The notes below the pieces were generated by a model. That model saw only the letters and a program-made list of their open reading frames with translations, was not told the DNA's origin and did no database searches. DNA of 64,000 nucleotides from Marsupella aquatica (Eukaryota; Plantae; Marchantiophyta). Of the stretch, positions 30,094-53,700 are shown piece by piece; the stretch's first letter is position 1; every line of letters starts with the position of its first letter. The stretch spans positions 23,311,899 to 23,375,898 of the forward strand of contig OZ316891.1 in assembly GCA_973895155.1 (NCBI GenBank). Reading direction: 5' to 3'. A program made the translations under genes and the position numbers.

Positions 30094-30193
30094 TCAGAGG
30101 AGATAGCAATGGCAACTAAGAGAGAACGACAGAGCTGGGGTCGAAGCTGGCGCGTGGACTGATGGACTGGTGCACTACAAAGGGTCGGCTCCC

Positions 30194-30201
30194 TTTTTAT
30201 A
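30194..30201 (-). promoter_or_regulatory. TATA-box candidate (TATAAAAA) in the B LTR upstream of the LTR ORF
   Basis: About 100 nt upstream of ATG 30093; conserved in the other copy near 50420. Confidence 0.5.
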
Positions 30202-30593
30202 CCTTGAGGGCTTGTCGATTGCCCAACGTCTCCTCGTTGCCTATAGGCTGAACCGTTCACGCTTGTAGTGTACCGGCCACTCCGCCGGTCTGAGTCAGTG
30301 CGTGTCAGTGGCCGCTTCCCTAAGTTTGTTATACGGACCTGAGGGAGAGGCCTTTGCACGCTCGCAACCCGGGCGTGCGAGTGGCGACACGCCACCAGTC
30401 CAAACGTGAATTCCCCTTATTGACTAATGATTTCCTACTCATAATGGTTACCTAAATATTGTCGTTATGCTAATAATAGCGGCCTAAGATACCCCTAACG
30501 CGCGTGCTAAGCGCGGTCTAGACTAATTACTCATTACTCACCGTACCGGCGGCGTCACATTAGCGGACAGCGGGTAGCGGCCTAACCCGAGAT

Positions 30594-31622: not shown

Positions 31623-33810
31623 CTAATGTCTGGCACGCTTGCCAAAGCCGTCCGAGTGGGAATGGTCATCCCGTTGCTTGCATAGTCTGGCATTGTCCGA
31701 CTTGAGGAGCTCGACTTGGTCTAGCAGAGATTCGTTCTCTCACTTTGCCGCGTCCGTCTCCTCCGCTGCCTCCTGGCATGCCTCTTCTAGCTGCTGGGCA
31801 TTGCTCGTTAGCTTGCCCACCACCTGGTCCTGCTTCTCGGCTTCGGTCTGAAGCCGCGCTACTTCAGCTTGTAGCGTGGCTATCTCCGTAGTGTCCCGCT
31901 GGGCCCGTTCTTTGGCCTTCTCCAAGTCTTTCTGCCAGATGACAGTTTGATTCTTCAAACTGTCAATCTGGGATCGGAGCCGTGAAATCTCGGCCTTGTT
32001 CCCAGCTTTGGCCTACTTGGCTAGGGCGGTAAGGGCGTGCGCCTTTGCTAACGACTTATCGGCGGCTGCAACTTTGGGTCGTAGTTGCAGAAGCTCAGCC
32101 TCTTGAGCCGCAACCTCGTTCTTTAAGTATACGGACTCCTCCCGGTACCGCTCTATCCTTTGAAGGGCCTCTGACTGGGCCCGACCTGCTTTTACTACGG
32201 CAACCAACTCCGATTGAAGAAACAGGCGACCTTCCGGGCCATGAACTCCCCGGTATCCCGGGCAATTTGATGAGAAAAATCTCCTAGAAGCCCATTCAGA
32301 AAGGTGCCCGGTACGAAGAGTTCCGGGTGGTCCAGGTTGTGCCTGTCCGAAGTTGGGCACGGGCAGACGTCAACACGCGCGGGGGCCAGGGCAGTGACAT
32401 CCAGCCCTGGGGACGTGTTGGAAAGGGCTGGAGTGTCCTGCTGGTGTGATGTCCGGTTCTCCGGAATAGCCACCGGCGGGTCATTGGGGGGCCCGGGCTC
32501 GAGTAAGACCTCCGCTGTACCGACTTCTGTACCTAGCCCGGCCTATTGGATCGCACCGATGGTTGCGATAACCGACCCACCCGGTACCTCCTCGGTCACG
32601 ACTACAGCTACTTGTGGGGTGGGGTGGGTGAAGCCTGCGTGTCCGCTGGACTTTGGGCCTCAGGTTGGGGCCATCTCTCCAAGGCCGGGAAAACCCACCT
32701 AGCTGGGACCAGCCTTGTAACGTTGACACGAGGAAGGGTTCGTCGATCAAACCGAGCGTACCACTCAAGAATGATCTCGATGTGGCTAGGGAAATATGCC
32801 TTCCCTCCAATGTACAGCGTCTTCCTTTGCCGCTCCATCTCTTCATGGAATTTCTTAACGAAGTACGACGCCCACTTCCTAGGTCGATAGTTCTCGACCT
32901 GGATAACCTGGGCGGCGGAGATCTCCCCCCGGGGTTCCATCATGTGGAGGGCGTACCTTTGGAACTCCAGTCGCTCAGCTATCTCGGGGATGAGGCAGGT
33001 CCTCATCACAAACCCATTGTCCACTGCTCCCTCTGAGGGAAAACTCAAGGATTGGTACTTGGCTCCCTTGCCCCCGGGGGCCTGTGATTCGACTCGGTGG
33101 TCCCCTTCGGGTAACCCGAAGATCATCTTGAGCCGTTCTTCCATGAGGGACATATTCATTCCCCGCAGCCAAGTTTGTTGACGTGCGTCATCATAATTCT
33201 TGACAAATTCCGTCATGTCCTCCTTGTAGTACCTGCATGTGTTCCAGGGGAGAGAGGTGAGGTGCTCGAATCCTTGAGTCTTCAGGTACACCGCATGCTT
33301 GGAATGGAGGATGTTTTTATGCACATTTTCCCCCATGCGGTGCATTGTCACCTTGGCCACGGCTACCGTGGCCAATGGTAACCCGGATACAGTGGTGGGT
33401 TCCTTCCTCTTCTTCCCTTGTGACTGGCTCGGGGAGGGTGACACCTCCCCATCCCCTCTATCGGGCATAGGTAGTGCTACCGCCATTAGTAATGGGCCCG
33501 TGGCGGCCACGGTCACCGTGTTGTCTGCTGGAGCCGCTCCTTGGGTCCGAGCATGGGGAGGGGACGATGTAGTGTCGGCCCCTTGAGTGTTTGCTCTTCT
33601 AGGCCGCCTGAGCAAGGGTGGGGTAGCCTCATCGTCGTCGCTAAGGTCCACAGCGTCGATGACGGAGCATACTTGTACTGGCGGGGCAATCGGCGGTTGG
33701 GTTTGGCTAGGGTGAGGCTGAGGTTGAGGTTGAGGCTGAGCCTGAGTTGGTGCGGGTACGGGTATGGGGTCGACTGGGCCGGCGCCGGCGGTTGAGGGTC
33801 TAGTTCCCAT
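31623..33810 (-). pseudogene. LTR-encoded ORF in the B 3' LTR (C-terminal two thirds; the N-terminal part lies at 49384-50313)
   Basis: ORF 32608..33810 (400 aa) and downstream fragments are homologous to 27504-30093. Confidence 0.75.
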
Positions 33811-33852
33811 GAAGCTCTTCAGGTGTTGGCAGAAGTTCTCCGAAGCAAGTGC

Positions 33853-36800
33853 TGTGATGCCTAGACAGGAATCACTCGGCCGGTTAAGTGGGTAAAGCAG
33901 GAAGGCACCCTAGGAACACCTTAGTATAGTGACAAAACAAGGAAAATATAAACAATTAGGGGCAACCATGGAACCCGGGCAGAGGCCGGAGGTAAGGCTG
34001 AGGGTGAAAACCCGATTAGGGTTAGGGCGCGTTAAGCGTCGGCGGCTAGGAAGGATCAACGGGAAGAAGGACCGGCAGAGGAGAGGGGTAAGGAGCGCTT
34101 GCAGGAGATGGTGGCTCATTTGTGAGCACGAACTAGGCAGACGACTACGGGAGGCCAACTACTGTCAGCTGCTTAGGCAAGCACTCGGGGAGAGAGTAGA
34201 TACCGACGATCAACCTAAGGAGGGTATGAGCAATGTCAATCAAGCGGCACATTTCTGGGGATGCCTGTTCGAACGGGCAACTGAGTACATCAAGACTTAC
34301 GAGGACGAGGAATCAGAAAGGGCAGCTCGAGAACGGCAGGAGCTCGCTCGATTGTGGGAGCTATAGAAGACGGCTTTCTTAGGAGGCGAACTCATCAAGG
34401 ACGAGTTCCTGTGGACGCCTACTTCCAATCAACTCGACGATCTTCTGTTTTGCAAAGACAGCGTCGTCGGCATCCGAGAGGCCATCAAGAACTGCAACGA
34501 CATACACTGGGAATTAAAGGGTAGCACGGAAAGGTGGACCCGGGCAACGGTACTAGGAGAAACCTCCACGGCAGCAGAGATGAAGAGGAAGGGAGCCGTC
34601 AACGATGAAGCCACCCCGGCAAAAAGAACGAGGTCGGCGGCACCAAAGAAGCCAGCCGAGCAGCAGAGCAGGAGGCAGGGAGAAGCCGAAGAGGAGGAGG
34701 TCGATCCCATCAAGGCCATTCCAACCAGGGATGACACCTAGAAGGGCTGGGCGGCAACCCTACCGGTGGAGGTGCAACTACATTTTGCACGAGAGAGGAT
34801 GCATGCTTTACGGCCATGCAGACCAAGAAGTACCAAGGCTTCATGGCCGGATCCGGCTTGGAGGCCTTTGTAAGATTACCATGGCTGAAGCCGGAGGTAC
34901 CGGAGTCAGACCTATTAGAATTCGTGGGGTCATGGGAACCCGAGACCAATTGCACGAGGATATATGGGAAGGATTTCTATCTTACTCCCAAGGTAATTGC
35001 CGAAGTGTTTGGCCTGCCGATAGGCAATAAGACCAAAGTTGATACCAGGAAGACCTTGCCTGACAAGGAGTTCCGGTCGTTCCCCGGGCCATCAACGAAG
35101 AATGGCTTCTTCCGGAACACCTGCACCAACCCGCACATAGGAGAGATGATCGACTTCTTGCGGGTGACCATGCATTGTAACTTGCCGAGGGTAGAGATCG
35201 GCAAGGCACAGGTCTATCTGGCAGAAAGGCCAGACCCAAGCCGGGACTACAACGGGTACCTCCTCAACCAATTGAAGAAGATCTTAAAGGAGGAGCAGCA
35301 GGTAATCGGCATGGGGAGCGTGTCGCGGCTTGGCTATCACATGCCGCTGTTGTGCCGGTATGCCAGAAGTCAGACTTTTGCCCTGGTACTTCCCCTGCAG
35401 GTAAGGGCACCCGAGGAAGCTCCAACGCCGAGGCCGTTGGCTGAGAAGCCTCAACCACCTGTTAGTCCTACGATCGAGCAGGTGTTTAGGCCCAGGAAGG
35501 AAGACTTGCCGATGCAGCAACCAGGCATGCAGAGTCTGCTGAAACTACTAGAGAAAGAAAAGAAATCGGCATCGGCAACAACAACGGCAACGGCAACAAT
35601 GCAGGACACTACTACAGAGGTAGGCCTACACCGGCTCACAAGAGAAAACCCCTTTGCTGGAGACAAGGAGAGAATCAGGCCGGAATCCAAGCCAGGTGTT
35701 CGAATGTACGTGGGAACCTCAAGCTCCGAATCTGAGGCAGAATTGCCTGAAGCTCCTACCGACGAAGAGGAGAGGGAGAAGCCGGACGTCCAAGAGGTAG
35801 AGGAGGCAGTGGAGGACTGCAGCCATGATAATTCCGGCTATGGGTCGGACCATCACGTTCCAGGAGTAAGGACCTGTGGCCGGTTTGTCCCCACACTTCC
35901 AAGGGTAGTGCGAGGGGACCCCAACCAGCAGAGTAGCCCTGAGTCTCCCCCACCAGATGTTGCTCCCCCGAGCTTCGACGGCATAAAACAGACGGTGCAG
36001 GAATTTCAGGAGCGAATCAAGCAGGAGGAAGAGGCCGCCCTGGCTAAGGAAAAGGATTTACCAGGAGGAGATTGGCCGGAGGACATCAGGCGGCTAGCCG
36101 AAAAAGGAAGCAAACCTCTAGCCACGATTGAAGAGATCCGCAGGACGGCTTGGGAGCAGAGGCCACGATGGGCGATGCCGATCACTTCTACTTACTCCAC
36201 CTACGCTAAGAATAGAGCCATGGAGTATGGTGAGATGTGTGGGGAACTTGCGCTCGACATCTTTGGAGAGGAGTTGGAGGTAGGACCCTTTTTCCATAGG
36301 GAGCAGTTGGAGAAGCACCAATTAGAAGAAGCGGTGGCTTTAGAGAGAAGCAAGAAGGACGAGGTCATTCGGCGGCTTAGGAGGATGGAAGCCGAGATTG
36401 AAGATCTAAGGGCGGCCAAGAAAGCCCAAGATGAACTGCGGATTAAACGACATGAGCTGAACATCATGCAGGGGCAGTTGGACACCGCGCAAGCTGATAA
36501 TCAGAATATCAAGGATAAACTGACTCAGACACAGGAAGAGTTGGCCGACACGATCAAAGAGAGGGAGAAGTGGAAGCAAGAGCTGAAGAATACAGAGGAG
36601 GCCCACATAACAGCCAACAGCCGGGCCATGGCGGAGACCCAAAGAAAGGAATGGGCGTTGAAAGGGGAGCTCGAGAAAATCCGCGGAGCCCTTGAGCAGA
36701 AGGAGGTCGAGTTAGGGAAATCCTATCAAGGGATTATGGCGCTGCAGCAGGAGCTTGCGTCCCTGACGGCCAGCTTCAAGGCCGACCTAAGGGAGAAGGA

Positions 36801-38502
36801 CGAGATGCTCGAACAGACTTACGCCAAGATGAACCAGATGAAGTCTGTCATCATTGCAAAGCTCGACAAGGAGCTAAGAGCAACCAAGGAGGAGAGGGCT
36901 ACCTTGAAGAAGGAATTGGAGGAAGCCCACAGGGAGCAGGAGGAGGCCAAAAACGAGCTGGAGGGGGCACGTAAGGACCTGGATGAAACCCAAGAGGAGT
37001 TGGAGGAAATCACGAGGAAGATGGAGAACCTACAGCGGCGGGCCGACAACCAAACAGAGCGGCTGAAGAAACAAGCCGCAGTATTTAAATGCTTAGCTGC
37101 AGCAGGTCCATCTCCCGTTGGGACAAACCAGTTACCAGGGGTGGTAATTGCCGAAGGACAAGCCGCGCCAACTGCACCAGTGCCGGAAGTAAGTGGGAAG
37201 GGGAAGGGACCAGCTGCCGAGCCACCAACGAAGAAGAAGCGGAAACCTTCAGGGTCAAGGAGTAATACGACTTCACAGGCCGTGGTGATCAAGGAGGTAG
37301 ACCCAGCACCGACCCCAGACAGGGTCACGGCTAAGGATCCAACTACCCTAGGGGAAGGGGAGGCCGAAGCCGAGGGAGTGGCTGAAGCCGAAGCCGTGGG
37401 AGTGGCTGAGGCCGAAGCTGTGGGTATTGCCGAGGCCGGTGTCGAGGCTGAAGCCGAAGGTGGACCCAGTCAGGCCGATGGAGAGTTGACTCGGTCAAGG
37501 GCAGGTAATCTGTCAGTAGGCGGGCCAACGGCAGTGGCTGAGGAGGAAGTGTTGGGGGCGTCCATTGAGGATCCACCACCGGTGTCGTGACGGTGCAAGG
37601 GCGCCGTTCCTTTTAGGGAGGGCGGACGTGGAGGGAGGAGGCGTGAGTGGGCAGGGCGGGCGCGGATCTCCACGTTTAGGATTAGGATCAGAACCAGGAG
37701 CGGCCCTGACACTTAGCTTAGTGGGATTGCGGTCCCACTGGTAGGAGCAACACTTGTGCTCCTGCCTTGCTGTACATAGGTAGATTCGGGCAAGTAGATT
37801 ACTGTTAAGTAGATTAGGCTTACGATGCAAAGAATGGCGGATCCACTACCAGGATAAGTACCTGGGCAGCGGGGAGCTCAGGGCCTCTTCTTTAGCAAGT
37901 TTTTAGTTTGCACCAGCCGGGCTGGGATCAAGTAGTACGAGAAGCTCTCGGTTAGTCATACAGTGACCCTTGTGTATATTCATGTTTCCTCATGCCTAAG
38001 AGCTGAATAGAGTTGGCCTCACGGCTTAGTTCGCAGAACTTGTGTATGAGATGTACTGTTTGTATGGCAAGTGCATGGTATGACTCAGTCAGAATGAGTC
38101 ATTTTGCTATTTGTGTGTCGCATTAACTTGTGTGAAGAGTGCCCACATCAACAGAAGGAAGGAAAGTAAGCAGGGGAGTGAGAGTTGGATGTGTCGAGCT
38201 GAGAGAGGTCTTAGCGGCTTAACCAAGCCTATTGGGGATCATTCCGGTGGCGGAATCCAAACATACCTAACAAGAAGACAGGGGAAGACAGGGGAAGGCC
38301 TATATTAGGCCGGCTACGTATCTCATGACCCGATGAAGGATCTGTCCAATATATGTGTGTAAAATGTTAATAGTAGTAGTAGAAGGTTAGCAGCGTCCCA
38401 TGCCGCTAAGCCGCGGAAACGGCCTCGCCAAGCACGAAACCTGCGGGAATCGGCTTGAGCTGGGGGGTTTCTTGGGTTTAGGGAGCCATGGGACGCACCA
38501 CA
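33853..38502 (+). repeat. 5' LTR of element A (4650 bp)
   Basis: TGTGATGCC..GCACCACA; near-identical to 44727-49378. Confidence 0.97.
33968..37590 (+). pseudogene. LTR-encoded accessory gene, 5' LTR copy (924-aa C-terminal part open from 34816)
   Basis: ATG in ACCATGG context at 33968. Two premature TAGs (34364, 34739) and a 1-bp deletion near 34795 relative to the 3' LTR copy. Long coiled coil. Confidence 0.85.
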
Positions 38503-38506
38503 TTTT

Positions 38507-38526
38507 TGGCGCTAGATGGAGGGGGC
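38507..38526 (+). other. Primer-binding site, tRNA-Asn-like (TGGCGCTAGATGGAGGGGGC)
   Basis: 4 nt after the LTR. Complementary, with one mismatch, to the plant tRNA-Asn(GUU) 3' end ...CCCCTCCTTCTAGCGCCA as recalled. Identical in element B. Confidence 0.75.
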
Positions 38527-38571
38527 ATTTCTTAAGCCGTGAGATATGAAGTTAGAACGGAAGCGTAGGTA

Positions 38572-41151
38572 ATGACTGACCTTACGCCGAGGGAAGAAAG
38601 AGTGATTCAACGGGAGAGAGCTCGACTGCAGCAGCTCGCCGGGTGGCATGATACACAGCGACTGAGAGGGGCAGAAAGAGCTGGTAGCTCCGAAACTGGA
38701 AGTGGCGTCGAAGAAGACATACCAGAAGAAGAGTCGGTAAGGAGAAGTGAGTCTCCAACCGACATGGGGGAACCAGAGGCACGGCCAGACGAGAGGCCAG
38801 GGACCAGATTGAGCCAGCGGTCACGCATACATTACAAGGCATTTCATGGGAGAGGAGATGAGGATCCGGACGAATGGTTGGATGATTTCGAGGGAACCGC
38901 TGCAGCAAATGGAGAATCGGCCATCAAGATGCAGATTCTTCCCGGCCTGTTCAAGGGTGAGGCTAGGCCTTGGTACAGAGCATTAGATGTGGAAGATCAA
39001 GCCATCTGGGATATCTTCAAAACACTCTTTGTTAAGGAGTTTCGACCCATTGGAACTTCAGAACTAGCAGTGCTGAAGTTGGGACAACTTCGGTTCAAGG
39101 AGAACAAATCCTTCAGGAAGTTCTTGCAACGCTTTCAGAAACTGGTAAGACGTACAAAGACCAATGCATCTGAAGGTATGCAACTTCAATGGTTGGTGAA
39201 TGCTTTGCCACAGAAGATGAGTTTTGCAATTAGAAAGGAGAACCCGGAGACTTTAGCCGAAGCAATTAAGGATATTCAATTATACATTAATGCAGATATC
39301 ACAAGCCGGAAGAAACAGCTTAAGTCTGAGAGTTCCTCATCAGAGGAGGGATCACCCCATAAGAAAAAAGATAAGAAGAAGAAACATTCCAAGAAGTCTA
39401 GAAGTGATAAGTCAAGCTCGGATAGTGGGAGTAGCAAGAGTGAGTCATCTTCTAGTTCTGAAGAAGAAAAAACTAGGAAAAGGAAGGGCAGAAGGAGAGG
39501 GAAGACGAAAGTCAAGATGGAGGCTAAGCCACCAGATAACATCGTAGCCCTTACCGAGCAACTTAAGGCTATCATTGCAGAGGTAAAACCAAAGAAGAAG
39601 GTAGTACAGGAGGATAGCTCTGTATGGTGTGCCTTATGTTATAAAACCGGACACCATAAAGATGCGTGTCCTAAGCTTAATACTAATCATGTTCGGCATG
39701 TGGCCGAGATCAGACCATGTCAGGGAGAAGTAGAGTACTTTTTGGGAGATGCCGCTGATAGTGTTTTCGGCATCAGTGAGACTGGAGCACGAGACCTATC
39801 CAACAGACCTGCATCTCTATGGTCAGGGTTAAGGAACAATCCAGGAGAGATGTATCCTCGGATTATTCAGAACCCGTCAGTACCTCCTAGGCCGAATGTG
39901 CAAAGATTTGCGGCGTGCTATAATTGTGGTCAACCTGGCCATTTTGCTAGAGAATGCCCGAATGCACGCAAACAGGGTGATGGACAACCAGCTCAGCTAT
40001 GTATGGGATGCCGACAGGAAGGTCATATGCTAGGTCAATGTCCTACTTGGTTGGTAGGCCTGGCCGCAAATCATAAGCTTTTGCCGATCAAGATCTTACC
40101 GCCAGGTACTACCCCCGGAGGAGTTCAAATCAACCACATCGAACTAGGATGGCAAGAGGATGCCGAGGCAGAGTTCGTACCATCTGATGATGAGGCCGAA
40201 GCCCTATCAACCTTCTCAGAGGAGGATTTAGATCATGATTGCTACCGGGTCTCTACTCGATCTACCAGAAGGAAGGAAAGGTGGGATGGGCTGGCCAAAA
40301 ATAAAGGGAAGGTTACGGAGGAAAGGATCGACTCTTCGTCAACATCAACAGAAGGAGAAGGGAGGGCTCCGGCAATACAGGTAAGCCATGAGCCCACCAG
40401 TGAAACCAATCCTTCACAAGATAGCGACTTCAATCGAGATCATCCTAAGTTGTTCTACCCCTCTGTTACGGCTAGTGTTAAGGAACAACTAAGAGAATTA
40501 GAAACCCTGGAGAATACCAAAGCCATTGCCAAGGATGTAAAACAAGCAAAAGCATTGTTTGCTTCGGAAGACCCAACAGCTGTGGAGACTAGCGTGGCAA
40601 AACTGGCCGAATCCAAGACGGAAACACCACCAGAAGAGAAGCCGATTGTTCCCTATGACCTGGCTAAAGATGTACTAGAATCTAGAGTCTCGGCAACAGT
40701 AGGTCAACTATTGAAAAATAGCCCGTACTTCCGGAAGCAATTAAGGAAGGCTATTCTCGGCAAGCCGAGATTACCCAAGGTAGCAACCAGATCCAACGTA
40801 CTAATGATAGAAGAAGATCAAGGAGCCCCAGCATTACCATTAATGATTCAAGGAGAATTATTACTACGGGTACCCATCGATGGAGGATCAGGGGTATGTA
40901 TTATGATTGATTCAACAGCAAAAGGGTGGGGTCTAACACCGGAGATGACTGGAAGAGTGTTGAACATGGCCAATGGATATCAGGTCATTCCGACAGGAGT
41001 GTTAACCGGCATCAAGACAGAGATAGGAGGTATCTTCTTTAGCATTAACTATGTAGTAATGAAGCCGGTAAATCCTACGTCATTCCGGCTATTGATTGGT
41101 AGGCCATGGCTGTACCTAGCCGAGGTAATAGAAGATTGGGGTAAAAAGTAG
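38572..41151 (+). CDS. gag: Gag (three CCHC knuckles) plus aspartic protease of element A
   Basis: FHGRGDEDPDEWL capsid start; CALCYKTGHHKDAC, CYNCGQPGHFAREC, CMGCRQEGHMLGQC; protease IDGGSGV..LLIGRPWL. Confidence 0.92.
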   Translation: MTDLTPREERVIQRERARLQQLAGWHDTQRLRGAERAGSSETGSGVEEDIPEEESVRRSESPTDMGEPEARPDERPGTRLSQRSRIHYKAFHGRGDEDPDEWLDDFEGTAAANGESAIKMQILPGLFKGEARPWYRALDVEDQAIWDIFKTLFVKEFRPIGTSELAVLKLGQLRFKENKSFRKFLQRFQKLVRRTKTNASEGMQLQWLVNALPQKMSFAIRKENPETLAEAIKDIQLYINADITSRKKQLKSESSSSEEGSPHKKKDKKKKHSKKSRSDKSSSDSGSSKSESSSSSEEEKTRKRKGRRRGKTKVKMEAKPPDNIVALTEQLKAIIAEVKPKKKVVQEDSSVWCALCYKTGHHKDACPKLNTNHVRHVAEIRPCQGEVEYFLGDAADSVFGISETGARDLSNRPASLWSGLRNNPGEMYPRIIQNPSVPPRPNVQRFAACYNCGQPGHFARECPNARKQGDGQPAQLCMGCRQEGHMLGQCPTWLVGLAANHKLLPIKILPPGTTPGGVQINHIELGWQEDAEAEFVPSDDEAEALSTFSEEDLDHDCYRVSTRSTRRKERWDGLAKNKGKVTEERIDSSSTSTEGEGRAPAIQVSHEPTSETNPSQDSDFNRDHPKLFYPSVTASVKEQLRELETLENTKAIAKDVKQAKALFASEDPTAVETSVAKLAESKTETPPEEKPIVPYDLAKDVLESRVSATVGQLLKNSPYFRKQLRKAILGKPRLPKVATRSNVLMIEEDQGAPALPLMIQGELLLRVPIDGGSGVCIMIDSTAKGWGLTPEMTGRVLNMANGYQVIPTGVLTGIKTEIGGIFFSINYVVMKPVNPTSFRLLIGRPWLYLAEVIEDWGKK

Positions 41152-41471
41152 TTCACTTTCGGGACCCCCTCTATCACGGTATCCTGGGACACTAAGGATG
41201 ACCGTAGGAAAAGCATAAGGGAAGTAGATGGGTACGATAGTGGACTGGAGTCAGCCGATGAAGTACGTTGGTTAGAATGCCTCACTAACCTAACCGAAGA
41301 AGGTGTCTTTGGACCAGAGGTACCCCCCAGCGGATTATGGCAAGAACCAATGGAAGGTGACTTGGAAGAAGAAGACGAAGAGGTCGAGGACTACTTTACA
41401 ATAGAATCCACCTTTTTAGCTGCAATCCCGGAGGAAGTAAAGGATGTATACCAATTGGATGAAACGGCTAA

Positions 41472-44400
41472 GTGGGGAGCAGTAGCAGGGACAGTGGATT
41501 TTCTGCAGGCGTTGTGGCAGAGCCGACGGGGTCCACAACGCCATCGATCATCGGCAAGGAATTAAATACCAAGGGATCGGCATACAAGCCGATTACGAGG
41601 GCAGAACAAATTGAGGCCCTATTAGAAGCCGAGAGAGCACAGCGGCCTAACTCTCAGGAGCAAGAGGTGGATGAGATGGACAGACACGATCTAGAGCCAA
41701 GGCAGGAAGGGGAGCCGACCACTAATTCAAAACCGAATAGACCGGTAGGGGGACAATCTATGGACACCAAGGAAGGGACCAACTCGGCTAGTCCAGCCGA
41801 GATCCCAGTTTATGGAGGTATGAGATTAGAGAGACTGGAAGCCGAACTGGACCCGAATTTGAAGAAGCAGATTAATATGATCCAAGCACGGCAATATCGG
41901 AAGCTCGACTTAGGAGAGGGAAGAGAACTGAACTTAGGGAGAAACCTAGCACCTGAGCTCGAGAAAGAGATCAGTGACTTATTGATTGAATTTCAGGATG
42001 TGTTTGCATGGAGTCACCAAGATCTAAAGGGAGTAGATCCAACACTAGGGGAACATCGAATTGATCTCATGTTAGGAGCCAAATCATTTCGACAACCAAT
42101 TCGAAGGATGAACCCGAAGTATTCCCTGCTGGTCAAAACAGAAATCGACAAACTAGTGGAAGCTGGATTCATCACTCCAGTCCTGCATTCAGACTGGGTG
42201 TCTCCAATTGTGATAGTTCCCAAGAAAGCTGGACCCGATGGTAAACCCAAGATCCGGGTTTGTCAGGATTACAAGAAGCTGAATGAAGCAACATTAAAAG
42301 ACCATTTTCCTTTACCGTTTACTGATATGGTACTAGACATGGTAGCCAGTCATGAACTATATTCATTCATGGATGGATACTCTGGTTATAACCAAATCAG
42401 GATTCGGCAGGAAGACCAAATCAAGACGGCCTTCATCACGGAATGGGGGATCTATGTCTTCAATCGTATGCCGTTTGGACTCTGCAACGCACCAGCTATG
42501 TTCCAACGATTAATGGTGAACATTTTTCATGATTACTTGAGAAAGTTCATGGAAATCTTCATTGATGACTTTGCAGTATTCGGGAAGGCATCGAAACATG
42601 CTAAATACCTCAGGAAAACCTTCATGAGATGTAGAGAGGTGGGTCTCAAGTTACACCCAGATAAATGTTTTTTTGCAGTAACCGAGGGGGTGCTACTAGG
42701 TCACAAGGTATCAAGGAAGGGCATTGAGATTGACAAAGGTAAGCTAGCAATATGGCTAGATATCATGCAACCTAAGAACATAAAGGATGTAAGATCCTTC
42801 TTGGGATGCATTGGTTACTATCGCCGGTTCATCAAGGATTTTGCCAAGCTGGCTTTACCATTAACCAATATGCTCAAGGCAGGAGCAGACTTCGAACCCA
42901 CACCCAAACGAGTCACAGCGGTGGTAGAATTGAAGCAGATGTTAGTAGAGGCCCCAGTCATGATAGCACCGGACTGGAACAAAGATTTTCATGTTTTTGT
43001 AGATGTCTCGGGCTTCTGTATTGGCTCAGTACTAAGTCAATTGGATGAGAAAGGAAGGGACCATCCCATATACTTCGCAAGCCGTCAGCTTGCCGATGCC
43101 GAACGGAACTACTCTACCACAGAAAGAGAAGCATTAGGAGTCATTTATTCTTGTAAAAAGTTTAGGCATTATTTACTAGGGTACAAGGTAATCTTTCATA
43201 CTGATCATGAAAGTTTGAAGTACCTAGTCAATAAGCCGGACCTTACAGGCAGAGTAGCAAGATGGATTTTGCTATTACAGGAGTTTGACTATGAGCTGAG
43301 GATCAAGCCGGGAAAGTTACATGCCAATGCCGACTTCTTTTCAAGGATCACAGGTAAACCTGCCACGGATTGCATCGATGATCGATTCCCCGACGAGGAG
43401 CTATTCGTTGTGGAAATAGCTGGTACATGGTACCCGGAGATTTTACAATTTCTCAGCACTTCCAGATTACAGCCAGGATTAAGCCGAGAGCAAGCCGCAG
43501 TCTTTGTGCGGAAGGTCAGACAGTATCAGTGCATTAAAGGCATACTGCACAAGCATGGAATCAACGGCACGATTCAAAGATGTTTGGAAAAGAGAGAGGT
43601 AAAACGAGTCCTACGGGCCATGCATGGAGAGGAGGCCGGAGGACATTTTGCCCCAGTAACCACGTCTAAGAAGATATTAAATGCCGGTTACTGGTGGCCC
43701 ACCTTGCACAAAGATGTCTATCAGTTTATCAAACAATGCGATCCTTGTCAACGAGCGGGAGGACCAAGGGCGTCCACCAGGCATCCACTGCACCCTATTC
43801 TACCTCTGGCACCATTTGAGAAGTGGGGTATTGATTACATTGGACCTCTGAAACCACTGACCCACCCTCGACGAAACAAGTACATAATCCTGGCTACGGA
43901 TTATGCAACTAAATGGGTAGAGGCCAGACCAACAACGAAGGATGATGCAATTACTACGGCTAGATTCATGTATGAGCAGATCTTCACCAGGTATGGAGCA
44001 CCCCTAGAATTAGTTAGTGATAGAGGAACCCATTTTTTGAATGATATAATTAGTCGTTTAAATGAGCAGTATTTAGTTAAACATAGGCCTACTACTCCCT
44101 ACCATCCAAAGGCAAACGGGTTGACAGAACGAGCAAACGGAATCATAGGAAAGATATTGAACAAGACAGTAGCTCAGAACAAACTCGATTGGGATGATAA
44201 ATTGTTTGCTGCTGTTTTTGCTTACAATCTTGCCTATAAATCCACTACCGGTCATACACCCTTCTTCTTAACCTTTGGACAAGAAGCCCTGGTACCCATG
44301 CAACTTGAGATACCGACATTTCAAGTTACAATTGAGGAAAGAGCCTCAGCGGAGGAGAGCCTAAAGGAGCGAGAATATAGGTTAGAAGCTTTAGAGGAAG

Positions 44401-44738
44401 CGAGAATGATTTCAGCCGAGAGAGTAGAATATAGACAGAATATCATGAAGCAGCAGTATGATAAAAGGTTAAAAGTAGTTAGTATTCATACCGGTGATCT
44501 TGTGCTACTTTATGACAGTAGGTATAGTAGGTTTCTAGGAAAGCTTTACACTCGCTGGTTAGGACCCTTTAGAGTAACCATGATGTTCCCCAATGGCTCC
44601 GTACAATTGGCCAACATTACGGGAGAGGTATATCCAGTTCGCATCCATTATGACCGCCTCAAGAAATACTATATGGACGAAGATGAAGTTGTTCGCGAGG
44701 ACGCTTCACAATTAAGTGGGGAGCTATGTGATGCCTAG
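41472..44738 (+). CDS. pol: Pol (RT-RNase H-integrase) of element A, open frame
   Basis: WVSPIVIVPKK, MDGYSGYNQI, MPFGLCNAP, FIDDF, FVDVSG, TDHESL, HHCC zinc finger, WGIDYIGP, SDRGTHF, WLGPF. No chromodomain or extra RNase H. The stop codon lies inside the 3' LTR. Confidence 0.96.
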   Translation: MGSSSRDSGFSAGVVAEPTGSTTPSIIGKELNTKGSAYKPITRAEQIEALLEAERAQRPNSQEQEVDEMDRHDLEPRQEGEPTTNSKPNRPVGGQSMDTKEGTNSASPAEIPVYGGMRLERLEAELDPNLKKQINMIQARQYRKLDLGEGRELNLGRNLAPELEKEISDLLIEFQDVFAWSHQDLKGVDPTLGEHRIDLMLGAKSFRQPIRRMNPKYSLLVKTEIDKLVEAGFITPVLHSDWVSPIVIVPKKAGPDGKPKIRVCQDYKKLNEATLKDHFPLPFTDMVLDMVASHELYSFMDGYSGYNQIRIRQEDQIKTAFITEWGIYVFNRMPFGLCNAPAMFQRLMVNIFHDYLRKFMEIFIDDFAVFGKASKHAKYLRKTFMRCREVGLKLHPDKCFFAVTEGVLLGHKVSRKGIEIDKGKLAIWLDIMQPKNIKDVRSFLGCIGYYRRFIKDFAKLALPLTNMLKAGADFEPTPKRVTAVVELKQMLVEAPVMIAPDWNKDFHVFVDVSGFCIGSVLSQLDEKGRDHPIYFASRQLADAERNYSTTEREALGVIYSCKKFRHYLLGYKVIFHTDHESLKYLVNKPDLTGRVARWILLLQEFDYELRIKPGKLHANADFFSRITGKPATDCIDDRFPDEELFVVEIAGTWYPEILQFLSTSRLQPGLSREQAAVFVRKVRQYQCIKGILHKHGINGTIQRCLEKREVKRVLRAMHGEEAGGHFAPVTTSKKILNAGYWWPTLHKDVYQFIKQCDPCQRAGGPRASTRHPLHPILPLAPFEKWGIDYIGPLKPLTHPRRNKYIILATDYATKWVEARPTTKDDAITTARFMYEQIFTRYGAPLELVSDRGTHFLNDIISRLNEQYLVKHRPTTPYHPKANGLTERANGIIGKILNKTVAQNKLDWDDKLFAAVFAYNLAYKSTTGHTPFFLTFGQEALVPMQLEIPTFQVTIEERASAEESLKEREYRLEALEEARMISAERVEYRQNIMKQQYDKRLKVVSIHTGDLVLLYDSRYSRFLGKLYTRWLGPFRVTMMFPNGSVQLANITGEVYPVRIHYDRLKKYYMDEDEVVREDASQLSGELCDA
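44711..44726 (+). other. Polypurine tract of element A (ATTAAGTGGGGAGCTA)
   Basis: Abuts the 3' LTR; nearly identical in element B and similar in the element at 61959. Confidence 0.8.
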
Positions 44739-47700
44739 ACAGGAATCACTCGGCCGGTTAAGTGGGTAAAGCAGGAAGGCACCCTAGGAACACCTTAGTA
44801 TAGTGACAAAACAAGGAAAATATAAACAATTAGGGGCAACCATGGAACCCGGGCAGAGGCCGGAGGTAAGGCTGAGGGTGAAAACCCGATTAGGGTTAGG
44901 GCGCGTTAAGCGTCGGCGGCTAGGAAGGATCAACGGGAAGAAGGACCGGCAGAGGAGAGGGGTAAGGAGCGCTTGCAGGAGATGGTGGCTCATTTGTGAG
45001 CACGAACTAGGCAGACGACTACGGGAGGCCAACTACTGTCAGCTGCTTAGGCAAGCACTCGGGGAGAGAGTAGATACCGACGATCAACCTAAGGAGGGTA
45101 TGAGCAACGTCAATCAAGCGGCACATTTCTGGGGATGCCTGTTCGAACGGGCAACTAAGTACATCAAGACTTACGAGGACGAGGAATCAGAAAGGGCAGC
45201 TCGAGAACGGCAGGAGCTCGCTCGATTGTGGGAGCTGCAGAAGACGGCTTTCTTAGGAGGCGAACTCATCAAGGACGAGTTCCTGTGGACGCCTACTTCC
45301 AATCAACTCGACGATCTTCTGTTTTGCAAAGACAGCGTCGTCGGCATCCGAGAGGCCATCAAGAACTGCAACGACATACACTGGGAATTAAAGGGTAGCA
45401 CGGAAAGGTGGACCTGGGCAACGGTGCTAGGAGAAACCTCCACGGCAGCAGAGATGAAGAGGAAGGGAGCCGTCAACGATGAAGCCACCCCGGCAAAAAG
45501 AACGAGGTCGGCGGCACCAAAGAAGCCAGCCGAGCAGCAGAGCAGGAGGCAGGGAGAAGCCGAAGAGGAGGAGGTCGATCCCATCAAGGCCATTCCAACC
45601 AGGGGATGACACCTGGAAGGGCTGGGCGGCAACCCTACCGGTGGAGGTGCAACTACATTTTGCACGGGAGGAGGATGCATGCTTTACGGCCATGCAGACC
45701 AAGAAGTACCAAGGCTTCATGGCCGGATCCGGCTTGGAGGCCTTTGTAAGATTACCATGGCTGAAGCCGGAGGTACCGGAGTCAGACCTATTAGAATTCG
45801 TGGGGTCATGGGAACCCGAGACCAATTGCACGAGGATATATGGGAAGGATTTCTATCTTACTCCCAAGGTAATTGCCGAAGTGTTTGGCCTGCCGATAGG
45901 CAATAAGACCAAAGTTGATACCAGGAAGACCTTGCCTGACAAGGAGTTCCGGTCGTTCCCCGGGCCATCAACGAAGAATGGCTTCTTCCGGAACACCTGC
46001 ACCAACCCGCACATAGGAGAGATGATCGACTTCTTGCGGGTGACCATGCATTGTAACTTGCCGAGGGCAGAGATCGGCAAGGCACAGGTCTATCTGGCAG
46101 AAAGGCCAGACCCAAGCCGGGACTACAACGGGTACCTCCTCAACCAATTGAAGAAGATCTTAAAGGAGGAGCAGCAGGTAATCGGCATGGGGAGCGTGTC
46201 GCGGCTTGGCTATCACATGCCGCTGTTGTGCCGGTATGCCAGAAGTCAGACTTTTGCCCCGGTACTTCCCCTGCAGGTAAGGGCACCCGAGGAAGCTCCA
46301 ACGCCGAGGCCGTTGGCTGAGAAGCCTCAACCACCTGTTAGTCCTACGATCGAGCAGGTGTTTAGGCCCAGGAAGGAAGACTTGCCGATGCAGCAACCAG
46401 GCATGCAGAGTCTGCTGAAACTACTGGAGAAAGAAAAGAAATCGGCATCGGCAACAACAACGGCAACGGCAACAATGCAGGACACTACTACAGAGGTAGG
46501 CCTACACCGGCTCACAAGAGAAAACCCCTTTGCTGGAGACAAGGAGAGAATCAGGCCGGAATCCAAGCCAGGTGTTCGAATGTACGTGGGAACCTCAAGC
46601 TCCGAATCTGAGGCAGAATTGCCTGAAGCTCCTACCGACGAAGAGGAGAGGGAGAAGCCGGACGTCCAAGAGGTAGAGGAGGCAGTGGAGGACTGCAGCC
46701 ATGATAATTCCGGCTATGGGTCGGACCATCACGTTCCAGGAGTAAGGACCTGTGGCCGGTTTGTCCCCACACTTCCAAGGGTAGTGCGAGGGGACCCCAA
46801 CCAGCAGAGTAGCCCTGAGTCTCCCCCACCAGATGTTGCTCCCCCGAGCTTCGACGGCATAAAACAGACGGTGCAGGAATTTCAGGAGCGAATCAAGGAG
46901 GAGGAAGAGGCCGCCCTGGCTAAGGAAAAGGATTTACCAGGAGGAGATTGGCCGGAGGACATCAGGCGGCTAGCCGAAAAAGGAAGCAAACCTCTAGCCA
47001 CGATTGAAGAGATCCGCAGGACGGCTTGGGAGCAGAGGCCACGATGGGCGATGCCGATCACTTCTACTTACTCCACCTACGCTAAGAATAGAGCCATGGA
47101 GTATGGTGAGATGTGTGGGGAACTTGCGCTCGGCATCTTTGGAGAGGAGTTGGAGGTAGGACCCTTTTTCCATAGGGAGCAGTTGGAGAAGCACCAATTA
47201 GAAGAAGCGGTGGCTTTAGAGAGAAGCAAGAAGGACGAGGTCATTCGGCGGCTTAGGAGGATGGAAGCCGAGATTGAAGATCTAAGGGCGGCCAAGAAAG
47301 CCCAAGATGAACTGCGGATTAAACGACATGAGCTGAACATCATGCAGGGGCAGTTGGACACCGCGCAAGCTGATAATCAGAATATCAAGGATAAACTGAC
47401 TCAGACACAGGAAGAGTTGGCCGACACGATCAAAGAGAGGGAGAAGTGGAAGCAAGAGCTGAAGAATACAGAGGAGGCCCACATAACAGCCAACAGCCGG
47501 GCCATGGCGGAGACCCAAAGAAAGGAATGGGCGTTGAAAGGGGAGCTCGAGAAAATCCGCGGAGCCCTTGAGCAGAAGGAGGTCGAGTTAGGGAAATCCT
47601 ATCAAGGGATTATGGCGCTGCAGCAGGAGCTTGCGTCCCTGACGGCCAGCTTCAAGGCCGACCTAAGGGAGAAGGACGAGATGCTCGAACAGACTTACGC

Positions 47701-49378
47701 CAAGATGAACCAGATGAAGTCTGTCATCATTGCAAAGCTCGACAAGGAGCTAAGAGCAACCAAGGAGGAGAGGGCTACCTTGAAGAAGGAATTGGAGGAA
47801 GCCCACAGGGAGCAGGAGGAGGCCAAAAACGAGCTGGAGGGGGCACGTAAGGACCTGGATGAAACCCAAGAGGAGTTGGAGGAAATCACGAGGAAGATGG
47901 AGAACCTACAGCGGCGGGCCGACAACCAAACAGAGCGGCTAAAGAAACAAGCCGCAGTATTTAAATGCTTAGCTGCAGCAGGTCCATCTCCCGTTGGGAC
48001 AAACCAGTTACCAGGGGTGGTAATTGCCGAAGGACAAGCCGCGCCAACTGCACCAGTGCCGGAAGTAAGTGGGAAGGGGAAGGGACCAGCTGCCGAGCCA
48101 CCAACGAAGAAGAAGCGGAAACCTTCAGGGTCAAGGAGTAATACGACTTCACAGGCCGTGGTGATCAAGGAGGTAGACCCAGCACCGACCCCAGACAGGG
48201 TCACGGCTAAGGATCCAACTACCCTAGGGGAAGGGGAGGCCGAAGCCGAGGGAGTGGCTGAAGCCGAAGCCGTGGGAGTGGCTGAGGCCGAAGCTGTGGG
48301 TATTGCCGAGGCCGGTGTCGAGGCTGAAGCCGAAGGTGGACCCAGTCAGGCCGATGGAGAGTTGACTCGGTCAAGGGCAGGTAATCTGTCAGTAGGCGGG
48401 CCAACGGCAGTGGCTGAGGAGGAAGTGTTGGGGGCGTCCATTGAGGATCCACCACCGGTGTCGTGACGGTGCAAGGGCGCCGTTCCTTTTAGGGAGGGCG
48501 GACGTGGAGGGAGGAGGCGTGAGTGGGCAGGGCGGGCGCGGATCTCCACGTTTAGGATTAGGATCAGAACCAGGAGCGGCCCTGACACTTAGCTTAGTGG
48601 GATTGCGGTCCCACTGGTAGGAGCAACACTTGTGCTCCTGCCTTGCTGTACATAGGTAGATTCGGGCAAGTAGATTACTGTTAAGTAGATTAGGCTTACG
48701 ATGCAAAGAATGGCGGATCCACTACCAGGATAAGTACCTGGGCAGCGGGGAGCTCAGGGCCTCTTCTTTAGCAAGTTTTTAGTTTGCACCAGCCGGGCTG
48801 GGATCAAGTAGTACGAGAAGCTCTCGGTTAGTCATACAGTGACCCTTGTGTATATTCATGTTTCCTCATGCCTAAGAGCTGAATAGAGTTGGCCTCACGG
48901 CTTAGTTCGCAGAACTTGTGTATGAGATGTACTGTTTGTATGGCAAGTGCATGGTATGACTCAGTCAGAATGAGTCATTTTGCTATTTGTGTGTCGCATT
49001 AACTTGTGTGAAGAGTGCCCACATCAACAGAAGGAAGGAAAGTAAGCAGGGGAGTGAGAGTTGGATGTGTCGAGCTGAGAGAGGTCTTAGCGGCTTAACC
49101 AAGCCTATTGGGGATCATTCCGGCGGCGGAATCCAAACATACCTAACAAGAAGACAGGGGAAGACAGGGGAAGGCCTATATTAGGCCGGCTACATATCTC
49201 ATGACCCGATGAAGGATCTGTCCAGTATATGTGTGTAAAATGTTAATAGTAGTAGTAGAAGGTTAGCAGCGTCCCATGCCGCTAAGCCGCGGAAACGGCC
49301 TCGCCAAGCACGAAACCTGCGGGAATCGGCTTGAGCTGGGGGGTTTCTTGGGTTTAGGGAGCCATGGGACGCACCACA
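44727..49378 (+). repeat. 3' LTR of element A (4652 bp)
   Basis: Near-identical to the 5' LTR, with two 1-bp indels. Confidence 0.97.
44842..48466 (+). pseudogene. LTR-encoded accessory gene, 3' LTR copy (single frameshift near 45602)
   Basis: ORFs 44803..45609 and 45479..48466 join into one 1207-aa ORF if the extra G in AGGGG is removed. Confidence 0.88.
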
Positions 49379-50751
49379 AGTGCAGATGTCCTTGTGGGAC
49401 GGGTAGCGCTGGACTCGCAGTTGATGATAGCCTGAACCTGAGCAGGGATGTGGTCAAAGTGATGTCGTTGCAAGTCGATCGTACCCAAGATATTGAAGAC
49501 CTCGTCCGGGAGCCAAAGCAATGCTTCCCAGAAACCGATATATTTGTCTCCGTTGAAGAAGTACCCAGATACCTCTGCTGGTCGGTAGAGCTCGCTCTGA
49601 GATGGGTAGTCAAAGTTAAGGATATAGCAGTCCCCTGAGCGCTTGTTCCTCTGGGCCGCCTGGTCAAGGGTGGGGTAGCCTCGTCGTCATCGCTAAGATC
49701 CACAACGTTGATGACGGAGCGTACTTGTGCTGGCTGGGCGATCGGTGGTGGGGTTTGGCTAGGCTGCGGCTGAGGCTGAAGCTGAAGCTAAGCCTGAGGT
49801 TGAGCCTAGGTTGCATGGGTACGGGTACGGGTTTGACTGAGTTGGTCATGTTGGTTGATGGTCGAGTTCCCATGAAGCTCTGCAGGTGCTGGTAGAAGTT
49901 CTCCGAAGCAAGTGCGGACGACCTTGTCGAACGGGTAGTACTGGACTCGCTGTTGATGATAGCCCAAACCTGAGCATGGATGTGGTCGAAGTGATGTCGT
50001 TGCAAGTCGATCGTACCCGGGATATTGAAGACCTCGTCCGGGAGCCAAAGCAATGCTTCCCAAAAACCGATATATTTGTCTCCGTTGAAGAAGTACCCAG
50101 ATACCTCTGCTGGTCGGTAGAGCTCGCTCTGAGATGGGTAGTCAAAGTTAAGGATATAGCGGTGTCATCCTGCTAGGCGGATGGCTCTCTCATACTCGCG
50201 TTTGATTTTGTATCGGCGCGGGTTGGCGTGTTTTAACGAGTCGGCCAAGTGTCTTCCGGTAGATAGGAACTACGTCCAGAATCGAATGGCCAAACTGGAG
50301 AGGATCATGTGCAACATTCAGAGGAGATAGTAGTGGCAAGTAAGAGTGAACGAGAGAGCTAGGGTCAAAGCTAGCGCGCGGACTGATGGACTGGTGCACT
50401 ACAAAGGGTCGGCTCCCTTTTTATACCTTGAGGGCTTGTCGCTCCCCCGACATCTCCTCGCTGCCTATAGGCTGAACCATTCACGCTTGTAGTGTACCGG
50501 CCACTCCGCCAGTCTGAGTCACCGCGTGTCAGTGGATGCCTCCCAAAGTTTGTTATACGGACCGGAGGGAGGGGCCCCTTAACGTTCGTAACCTGGGCAT
50601 GCGAATGGCGATGCGCCGCCAGTCGGAACATGAATTCCCCTTATTGACTAATGATTTTCTACTCATAATGGCTACCTAAATACTGTTGTTATGCTAATCA
50701 TAGCGGCTTAAGATACCCCTAACGCGTGTGCTAAGCACAGTTTAGACTAAA

Positions 50752-53700
50752 TTACTCATTACTTGCCGTACCGGCGGCATCACATAGCTCCCTACTTAAT
50801 TGTGAAGCGTCCTCGCAAACATCACTCTCGGCGTCGTCGTCTTGATGGTGGTACCTCTTTACACGATCGTAACTGACTCGCGTGGGGAGTAAATCGCTGG
50901 CGTACGTTGCAAGTTCCAAAGATCCGTTAGGGTAGATCTGATTGACTAGGAAGGGCCCTAACCAACGGGTATGAAGCTTCCCTGGAAACTGCATGTACCT
51001 ACTATCATACAGAAGGACTAGATTGCCTGTCACGACGTCGACCTTCCATAGTCCTTTGTCGTGCTGTTTCTTGGAAGTTGCTTGCTTCATTACGACGTGT
51101 CGAGCTGCTAGTAGCCGTGTCTCTTCTAAGGCTTCAATCTGATAAGCTCGGTCTGACAAACTTTCAGATTCAGGTAAGCGCTCCCAAATGCTGACCCGTG
51201 GAGTGTGTAGTTCAAACTCGATGGGTACCAACAAATGTTGGCCGAACACGAGAAAGTACGGGCTGTGACTCGTAGTAGTTTTGTAAGCTAGATTATACGA
51301 GTACACCGCCGCGTACAACTTATCATCCCAATCCATTTTGTGCGCAGCTACAGTTTTGTTGAGGATCTTCCCAATGATACCATTGGCTCTCTCTACCATC
51401 CCGTTGGCTTTAGGATGATACGGGGTAGTCTTGCGGTGCTTGACTAGGTAACGCTCCGTAAGCTGGGCTACAGTGTCATTGAGGAAGTGTGTTCCACGGT
51501 CGCTTACCAACTCTAAGGGCGGTCCAAACCGGGTGAAAATCTGTTCATATAAGAAGCTGGCGCTGGTTGTGGCGTCGTCCTTCACCATAGCCCGTGCTTC
51601 TACCCAGTTGGTGGAGTAATCTATAGCTAGCAAGATGTACCTGCATCTTCGCCTTTGGGTAACGGGAGTAAACGGCCCGATATAATCAATACCCCACTTT
51701 TCGAATGGTGCTAATGGAAGCACGGACGTGAGAGGGTGATGATGAGCTCGTCTCGGGGCCCCAGCCCGCTGACAAAGGTCACAGCCTTTGATGAAGCGTT
51801 GTACATCCCGATGCAACATAGGCCACCAATATCCCGAGTCCAGAATCTTTCAGGATGTCGTGATAGCCGCAAAATGGCCTCCAGCTTCTTCTTCATTCAG
51901 GGCCCACATCACGATAAGCATTTCCTTATACTCTAAGCAGCATCGTACTTTCCCATTAACTCCTTCCTTATGTAGGTGGCCCTGTATCATGACATAAGGC
52001 CCGGCTTTCCTTAAAAACACAGCGACGGCTTCCTGATTGATGCCGTTAGGGATGCGGCCCGTTAAGAGGAAGGTGATTATTGAACCGTACCACGTTGTCG
52101 TCCCCGCCCCTACGTGGAACAAATCCTCATCCGGAAAAATATCATTAATTGGCTGATTGACTGGCACGCCGTCCAGCCTTGAAAAGAAATCGGCGTTGAG
52201 GTGTACCTTTCCTGGCCGAACCAAAACTTTGTAATTAAATTCTTGGAGAAGTAGCACCCACCGGGCTATCCATCCTGTCACGTCCGCCTTGTTGACCATG
52301 TACTTCAGGCTATCATGATCCGTGTGGAATATGACCTTGTAGCCGAGCAGATAGTGTCGGAACTTTTTACACGAGTAGATTATTCCCAGAGCTTCTCGAT
52401 CAGTGGGGGAATAATTCTTTTCGGCTGCAAATAGTTGACGGCTACCAAAATAGATGGGGTGATCACGTCCATCCTCATCTAGCTGACTAAGTACGGACCC
52501 GATACAGAACCCTGACACATTGACATACACGTGGAACTCCTTATTCCAGTCTGGGGTGACCATGATAGGTGCGGTGGTGAGTCGTTTACAGAGTTCTTCG
52601 AAAGCAATCCGTCTTCGGGGTGTCTCCTCGATCACTGCATCCTTCTTCATCATCTCAGTTAAGGGCAACGCAATTTTAGCAAAGTTTTTAATGAACTGGC
52701 GGTAATACCCTACACAGCCCAAGAAGGATCGTATCACTTTTTGATCCATGGGAAACACCACCGCCATCCAGGCCGCGACCTTCTCTTGGTCCACCTCGAT
52801 ACCCCGTTTGGACACACGATGCCCGAGCAATACTCCCTCCTCTACTCCAAAAAAGCATTTGGCGGGATGTAGCTTGAGGTTAACTTCTTAGCATCGTTGC
52901 AACGTACGTCTTAGGTGTTCGGGGTGCATGGCGACAGTTCCAAAGATGGCAAAGTTGTCGATAAAGATCTCCAGAAATTCTCGTAGGAAATCATGGAAGA
53001 TATTCATCATGAGTTGCTGAAACATGGCCGGAGCGTTACACAGTCCGAACGGCATTCTCCGAAATGCGAAAGTCCCCCATTCTATAGTGAACGTTGTTTT
53101 GAGTTGATCCGAGAGGCGAATCCAGATTTGGTTATAACCCGAATATCCGTCAAGGAATGTATAAATCTCATTTTGGGCTACCATATCTAGAACCATGTCC
53201 GTGAATGGTAACGGATAATGGTCTTTTTGGGTCGCGTCATTCAGCTTACAATAGTCCTAACAGATTCGGATCTTAGGTTTTTTGTCCGTTCCTCCTTTTT
53301 TTGGTACAATGATGATGGGAGAGACCCAGTCGCTGGCCATTACCGGGTAGAAGATATCTGCGGCGAGGAGACGATCAATTTCCTCCTTCACTAAGATGGA
53401 GTACCTCGGGTTCATGCGACGTTGTCGCTGCCGTACTGCATGGGCCCCCAAATTCAAATCGATCGTGTGTTCTCCTAACTCGGGGGAGACTCCGGTTAAA
53501 TTGTGATGGCTCCATGCAAACACATCTTCATATTCCTTGAGCAAAGCTTGGATAGATTTTTCTGCCTCCCTAGTCAGAGTGTGGCCCAGGTTAAACGACT
53601 TATCCATCCCAATGGTGTACTTCCGGTAGTGCTCCTTCCTGATGACTTCAACCTGGTTCCGCAAGCTCGGGTCCAGGCTTGCATCAAGTTCAGCTAACCA

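Follow-up and report, generated by a model that had tools for sequence, protein, structure and literature searches.

The window analysed here is the whole 64,000-nucleotide stretch of contig OZ316891.1 from the liverwort Marsupella aquatica, and in it lies a long terminal repeat (LTR) retrotransposon, element A, each of whose LTRs encloses a long gene. The element is 15.5 kb in total and shows the features of Ty3/gypsy elements, namely the order gag, protease (PR), reverse transcriptase (RT), RNase H (RH), then integrase (INT), TG..CA LTRs, a primer binding site (PBS), a polypurine tract (PPT) and a target site duplication (TSD) (Table 1). Both LTRs have TGTG...CACA termini, and alignment of the 5' copy with the 3' copy gave 4633 identical positions, 17 substitutions (16 of them transitions) and two 1-bp indels (K ~0.0037). 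At 12 of the 16 transitions, between 34234 and 38349, the 5' copy reads A or T, a pattern that heavier deamination of the 5' LTR would give. The PBS is presumably of the tRNA-Asn type, here as in the sister family B, and the pol frame stops 10-12 nt into the 3' LTR. The protease had no Pfam match and was recognised by eye from its motif only. Scans of gag and pol, with the 107-codon PR-RT spacer inspected by eye, found a single RNase H region and no additional RNase H such as that of Tat elements (TatI-III, Ogre, Retand). No chromodomain was matched after the integrase and pol ends shortly past it, which sets the element apart from chromoviruses. Element A is a young Ty3/gypsy element, its non-chromovirus lineage being likely a bryophyte one. 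At 41468-41480, where the frame changes from the protease spacer to RT, 12 bases match the terminal PPT, possibly representing a central PPT.

An earlier note on this DNA had proposed that the TG..CA ends, TSD, PBS and PPT delimit true LTRs and not a segmental duplication, and all of these signals were found exactly at the ends of the 4.65-kb repeats. Contigs from other sequencing runs (n=4, from four organisms) cover element A and link the same LTR end either to the PBS or to different flanks; their summed depth was greater over the LTR than inside the element, which is not a copy number and was left unused. The repeats are genuine LTRs of a recent family that is shared with other organisms.

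Each LTR carries a single long sense open reading frame (ORF) with its ATG 115 nt in (33968 and 44842). From ATG to stop it spans 78% of the LTR as earlier described, and this frame and span hold, with codons 1-86 probably being non-coding; overall the gene fills about 72-78% of the LTR. The two copies are broken at different sites, as the earlier note had also reported: the frame of the 5' copy is interrupted by stops at 34364 and 34739 and has one base fewer near 34795, and that of the 3' copy is shifted by one base near 45602. The base at 45602 is missing from 71%, 47%, 96% and 100% of the contig depth in the other runs X1, X2, X3 and X6, respectively. The coiled-coil-like stretch, the KKKRK patch and the acidic repeat tail are all present in the translation, as predicted.

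Conservation of the gene had been put forward as a check, and the ratios of non-synonymous to synonymous change (w) bear it out. Between A and its diverged copy A', codons 1-87 gave w=1.52 and codons 88-165 gave w=0.23 (p 1e-4), against 1.5-1.6 in shifted frames; for 31 codons of the core domain w was 0.07. The homologue P0065 and the family B frame, which share an FW motif, both start near the equivalent of M87, and the alignment of P0072 begins slightly further in. Since P0065 and the family B frame start there, the LTR protein is likely to be ~1121 aa long, encoded by a gene of ~3.4 kb, rather than the 1207 aa first proposed, with codons 1-86 likely non-coding. Among family B copies, w was 0.42 in the core (p 0.002) and 0.49, 0.63 and 0.74 in the coil, where one value is significant; no significance was reached for linkers (0.70-1.96), for the N-terminal piece (0.59) or for the segment as a whole (0.79). 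In the close runs, nine of the 12 listed indel sites (of 13) fall in the 912-nt tail, and of the three listed in the ORF one is the break present in the window and two compensate each other. In the distant runs, 19 of the 40 listed variants (of 204) are at third positions (p 0.04) and only 14 are synonymous (p 0.30), the synonymous share being 8 of 12 for the core, where one or two contigs contribute most of them, and 2 of 11 for the coil. Judged by these codon comparisons, the LTR gene is real and under selection, with constraint clear for the N-terminal and core domains and weak elsewhere.

Table 1. Features of element A and its sister families in the window
Feature	Position	Strand	Remarks
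Left TSD AGTGC, 5 bp	33848..33852		within LTR ORF of family B
5' LTR, element A	33853..38502	+	4650 bp
LTR gene, 5' copy, from likely start M87	34226..37590	+	broken: stops 34364, 34739; frameshift near 34795
PBS, element A	38507..38523	+	starts 4 nt past 5' LTR; same in family B
gag (PF03732, zf-CCHC) and protease-like end	38569..41151	+	Pfam; protease motif by eye
RT, RNase H, integrase	41472..44738	+	stop codon inside 3' LTR
Conserved pre-PPT motif and PPT	44692..44726	+	directly at pol end; purine tract abuts 3' LTR
3' LTR, element A	44727..49378	+	4652 bp
Only canonical TATA box of the LTR (+95)	44821..44826	+	retained in diverged copy A'; candidate LTR-gene promoter
Codons 1-86 of originally proposed ORF	44842..45099	+	without purifying selection; likely 5' leader
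Conserved N-terminal domain from M87	45100..45420	+	
Core ~200-aa domain	45629..46258	+	predicted VANC21-like fold
Long coiled-coil-like region	47100..47990	+	approximate limits; translation
KKKRK patch, acidic EAE(A/G)V repeat tail, stop codon	48000..48466	+	translation
Non-coding LTR tail, 912 nt	48467..49378	+	carries most listed indels; dyad and CATAC at 49118
Right TSD AGTGC	49379..49383		
3' LTR of family B	30849..50784	-	interrupted by element A; homologous ORF
gag-pol of family B	50776..56502	-	decayed; pol 63% identical to A
3' part of family B 5' LTR	56876..58892	-	coiled-coil ORF end; PBS at 56862
Second family B LTR, near-complete, 3927 bp	26633..30559	-	decayed ORF; TATA at +359
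A', diverged family A LTR remnant (~81%)	15689..17800	+	family B LTR piece 16309-17700 inside
Family C solo LTR, 4319 bp	2272..6590	+	TSD GAACC; intact 617-codon ORF 3578-5431, coiled coil

The host site of element A is the 3' LTR of a minus-strand sister element of family B, in which 49377-50163, beside the insertion site, is a tandem duplication with 532-bp spacing. Family B has the same PBS as A, a nearly identical PPT block and LTR start, and LTRs of ~3.9-4.4 kb. Its decayed ORF shares 26% identity with that of A in the core (184 aa, E 3e-17) and terminates, with a coiled coil, ~900 nt before the LTR end, compared with 912 nt in A. The LTRs of A and B each have one canonical TATA box, upstream of the ORF. 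The gene-inside-LTR design recurs in family B. The family C solo LTR has TG..CA ends; a scan for its TSD gave nine candidates over a wide range, so that this call rests also on near-inverted termini and motif position. That such a gene would persist in solo LTRs had been anticipated, and family C is a case of this, with an ORF that is not alignable to that of A: no homology of its protein to A or B was found by HMM, BLASTP or hhalign, the core included, and its single-sequence structure model (pLDDT 34.5) is too low to use. Upstream of the ORF in this solo LTR, 2780-3180 is a dense GCGAGC(T/C)GC tandem array, a candidate target array.

The three families also have in common a dyad, TTCCG-N4-CGGAA, followed by CATAC, located 130-260 nt from the LTR end (at 6445, 26779, 38242, 49118 and 57047), while their proteins are at most 26% alike; on the opposite strand CATAC reads as a splice donor. 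Since Rfam matched no family in the LTRs, the dyad included, a ribozyme at this place is unsupported. A relic PPT was looked for by eye in the LTR tail, where purine runs occur at chance level only.

In a fold search, the predicted structure of the core domain matched the DNA-binding core of VANC21 (PDB 9lnj/9lnk) over 195-201 of 210 residues, at 8% identity. Homologues of the core were recovered only by a full HMMER scan; neither the core region nor alignment A3 matched anything in word-based protein searches, and a PDB sequence search with A3 gave 0 hits. The earlier note had likened the protein to plant mobile-domain proteins, and this stands with respect to the VANC21 fold and to a feature-level lead, the Transposase_32 (PF20167) cluster ranking third (0.89) in a feature search. 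It does not extend to Pfam cut-offs: the Plant mobile domain (PF10536) profile matched 0/44 and 0/6 proteins, and PF20167 matched 2 of 39 homologues at 17 bits (E 0.006), below the 45-bit cut-off, with no match to the query. DUF1985/DUF287 had no Pfam match in the long LTR ORFs or the 39 homologues, and a viral fold library gave nothing at E<=0.001 (A0A890CAY5 at E 0.012, TM 0.36). The modelled fold and the feature lead support a relationship of the core to plant mobile-element accessory domains, the link to PF10536 running only through the VANC-MAIN structural homology published in PMC13547354. In P0058 and P0062, one of which is a Riccia protein, the core domain is annotated beside a PIF/Harbinger DDE_Tnp_4 piece, so the domain may also ride on DNA transposons.

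With the integrase as query we collected 79 metagenome loci (7740 segments scanned), in six of which a downstream ORF matched the domain profile at E<0.02. The L004 ORF was added through its 45% identity to that of L005, and the probability of alignment to the family is 97% for six of these ORFs. The order of ORF and PPT, assigned with L001, L021 and L022 left out, takes two forms. L002 and L009 have the ORF after pol and ahead of the conserved pre-PPT/PPT block; in L002 a second PPT-like tract immediately follows pol, and beyond the block there is a ~1-kb LTR starting TGTGATG like that of A, then gag preceded by a PBS which we take to be Athila-type. In L004, L005, L007 and L008 the block directly follows pol and the ORF lies behind it, and L003, L006 and L011 have the block after pol with no ORF of at least 150 codons up to the contig end. 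In L004 the LTR end that adjoins the PBS has its 9-bp inverted repeat at the start behind the PPT and is absent from the next 1.37 kb, so the L004 ORF lies inside the LTR; L005, L007 and L008 have no second LTR on the contig. The LTR-end DNA at L006:1-1395 and L007:4990-6092 is dense in ATCCGG/TCCGGA, far above shuffles.

A 47-row integrase tree, which took in 30 loci of the 31 entered from the 79 (L074 was too short) and 15 of 17 proteins, recovered A and B together with the L002 group, Riccia and the L003-L011 group as a polytomous clade (100/100) that excludes L009. In this tree, built without curated Athila references, the A/B group stood apart from seven angiosperm-type rows (100/100). 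In a 19-row tree (17 loci, Riccia and ENA/Logan rows left out) the nine rows with the PPT after pol were united at SH-aLRT 87, the L002 group being sister. From these sequences the internal position of the gene, between pol and PPT, is probably ancestral, and the trees allow a single move into the LTR.

We propose that the LTR-internal gene makes a nuclear DNA-binding protein that protects copies of its element or switches them on, in the manner of VANC for VANDAL transposons, and give this reading a probability of about one half. Ancestrally, the gene would have followed pol and preceded the terminal PPT, the state seen in L002 and L009, and the PPT and LTR-start block would have come to precede it by takeover of an upstream PPT-like tract, as is present in L002, or by recombination. 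Since it would in this history have been absorbed into an enlarged U3, the gene would be copied to both ends in each replication cycle, with the ~0.9-kb tail behind the stop being the former ~1-kb LTR. If the LTR is read as promoter, gene and old ~1-kb LTR body, both LTRs and solo LTRs could express the gene, the TATA promoter at the LTR 5' end driving a separate mRNA. The VANC-like core would read a family-specific DNA motif, the coiled coil would oligomerise the protein, and the complex may counter methylation or Polycomb silencing, or activate the LTR promoter, also in trans. The short motif to which VANC21 binds is arrayed in the element that encodes it, and VANC21 removes methylation (PMC5735166); MAIN is reported to be a structural homologue of VANC21 (PMC13547354), and motif binding and opposition to Polycomb are described for MAIL1 and MAIL2 (bioRxiv 2024.09.27.615353). 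What had been a hunch of anti-silencing is in this way raised to the best reading by the modelled VANC21 fold match and the Transposase_32 lead. Short-motif arrays are present in family C, L006 and L007 and not clear in L008 and L002; their absence from the non-coding DNA of A and B weighs against the proposal for this family. More tentative is the broader idea that a whole bryophyte lineage turned its LTR into a self-contained anti-silencing cassette by moving a VANC/PMD-fold gene to U3, in which case every one of its many LTRs and solo LTRs could supply a sequence-specific factor that sustains the activity of the family in trans.

The same gene and fold could instead serve another job, binding nucleic acid or chromatin to steer integration, packaging or exporting RNA, or scaffolding particles through the coiled coil. 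Such a job would suit the lack of motif arrays in A and B, the insertion of A within a sister-family LTR among closely nested families, and the room for functional change that 8% identity to VANC21 leaves. However, the characterised fold relatives (VANC21, MAIN/MAIL) bind DNA motifs and act on silencing, as far as described in the sources above, and a structural particle protein would presumably gain little from a location in solo LTRs; we consider this reading rather unlikely. Equally unlikely, in our view, is a different position of the gene, in which no promoter other than the TATA at +95 (A) or +359 (B) exists, leaving a short U3 and placing the gene in an oversized R or U5 as first cistron of the genomic RNA, with gag reached by splicing or internal entry. 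That A and B have just one canonical TATA in each LTR, ahead of the ORF, agrees with this, and the conserved dyad/CATAC near the LTR end could mark a splice site. Against it, the probable ancestral gene location adjoins the PPT, and U3 follows on from there; the tail after the stop (0.9-1.16 kb) is comparable in size to the whole ~1-kb L002 LTR; and it would be unusual for a minus-strand strong-stop product to reach 4 kb.

Sense ORFs after pol are frequently termed env-like (PMC7264820) and the coiled coil is long, yet an env-like or movement protein for cell-to-cell spread is very improbable given the predicted match to a DNA-binding protein, the basic patch resembling a nuclear localisation signal, the lack of any hydrophobic membrane-spanning stretch evident by eye in the translation, and the lack of matches at E<=0.001 in the viral fold library. 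A last reading has a short true LTR with a segmental duplication or neutral passenger sequence around it. The broken state of both gene copies and the weak constraint on a large part of the ORF could be cited for it, but it is essentially refuted by the exact position of TSD, PBS and PPT, by the junctions in the other runs and by the recurrence of the design in family B, solo LTR C and L004.

No description of an ORF-in-LTR arrangement was found in openly searchable full texts on LTR ORFs, liverwort elements and VANC/PMD; subscription journals and Steinbauerova 2011 lay outside the search, and the supplementary tables of PMC6317226 might hold such elements. The LTR-internal gene is real, selected and present in several families; it appears to give gypsy elements a new architecture and has a strong lead to anti-silencing from structure prediction. 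A conserved 1100-codon LTR gene in several families, with the unmoved state in relatives, offers a natural series for a U3 absorbing a gene, and the VANC21-like fold suggests a concrete, testable function for extra ORFs whose role has so far been open. It also bears on the order of origin of gypsy-borne and host PMDs, which PMC5418596 leaves open. If our proposal is true, every insertion and leftover LTR would likely carry its own defence against host silencing. If the cassette idea also holds, the gene would be a retrotransposon counterpart of VANC, its fold would exist on gypsy elements outside angiosperms, possibly at the root of VANC and host MAIN/MAIL, and solo-LTR formation would fail to disarm the element.

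Elsewhere in the window, 10570-15136 contains decayed ORFs, the last part of which matches an N6/N4 DNA methylase (PF01555, E 1e-5); they may be a mobile methyltransferase gene, a kind known from liverworts. A decayed Ty1/copia element lies at 19148-23779 on the minus strand, flanked by a 193-bp exact repeat (18625/23909). The 27-bp tandem repeat arrays at 6826-7597 and 9545-9728 have fold-back potential, and Rfam gave sub-threshold microRNA-like matches only for the tandem repeats at 7-9.7 kb.

Coding sequence in or extending into the LTR, duplicated in each cycle, is known from retroviruses, as in sag of mouse mammary tumour virus, nef of HIV and the bel region of foamy viruses. The gene of element A differs from these in its length (>1100 codons), in filling about 72-78% of the LTR, in belonging to a plant element and in encoding an unrelated protein. 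Among plant elements, the non-chromovirus Athila/OTA group (Neumann 2019, PMC6317226; Vicient and Casacuberta 2020, PMC7264820) resembles A in its RT-RH-INT order, 5-bp TSD, large LTRs (non-chromovirus LTRs reach ~5 kb; PMC6317226), absence of an additional RNase H and sense extra ORF after pol. These sources, in their available parts, place the extra ORFs of Athila-type elements in the internal region; this layout, between pol and PPT, is found in L002 and L009, whereas in A and B the ORF lies behind the terminal PPT, within both LTRs of A, and the PBS of A differs. Angiosperm RT-RH relatives are only 38-51% identical to A. Ogre and Retrosat2 likewise combine LTRs of 3-6.5 kb with an extra ORF, but as described in PMC6431247 and PMC3485330 it lies in the internal region or upstream of gag-pol and is not part of the LTR. 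Phygy, a short element with an interior that is almost all polyprotein and with an NCGN target preference, was ruled out by the 5-bp TSDs AGTGC and GAACC and the 15.5-kb length. Like the Plant mobile domain (PF10536; MAIN/MAIL, Gypsy PMD-A) and Transposase_32 (PF20167), the core is an accessory domain borne by Gypsy; PMDs have been described from angiosperms (PMC5418596), and the protein of A reaches no Pfam cut-off. VANC21 of the VANDAL21 Mutator-like DNA transposons (PMC5735166) shares with it the predicted core fold, the encoding by a transposon, tandem peptide repeats in variable regions and a coiled coil (reported for VANC21 in PMC13547354). The protein of A differs from VANC21 in being encoded by a retrotransposon, in its 8% identity and in the lack of a motif array in A or B, and it comes from a liverwort, whereas VANC is described in PMC13547354 as dicot-specific.
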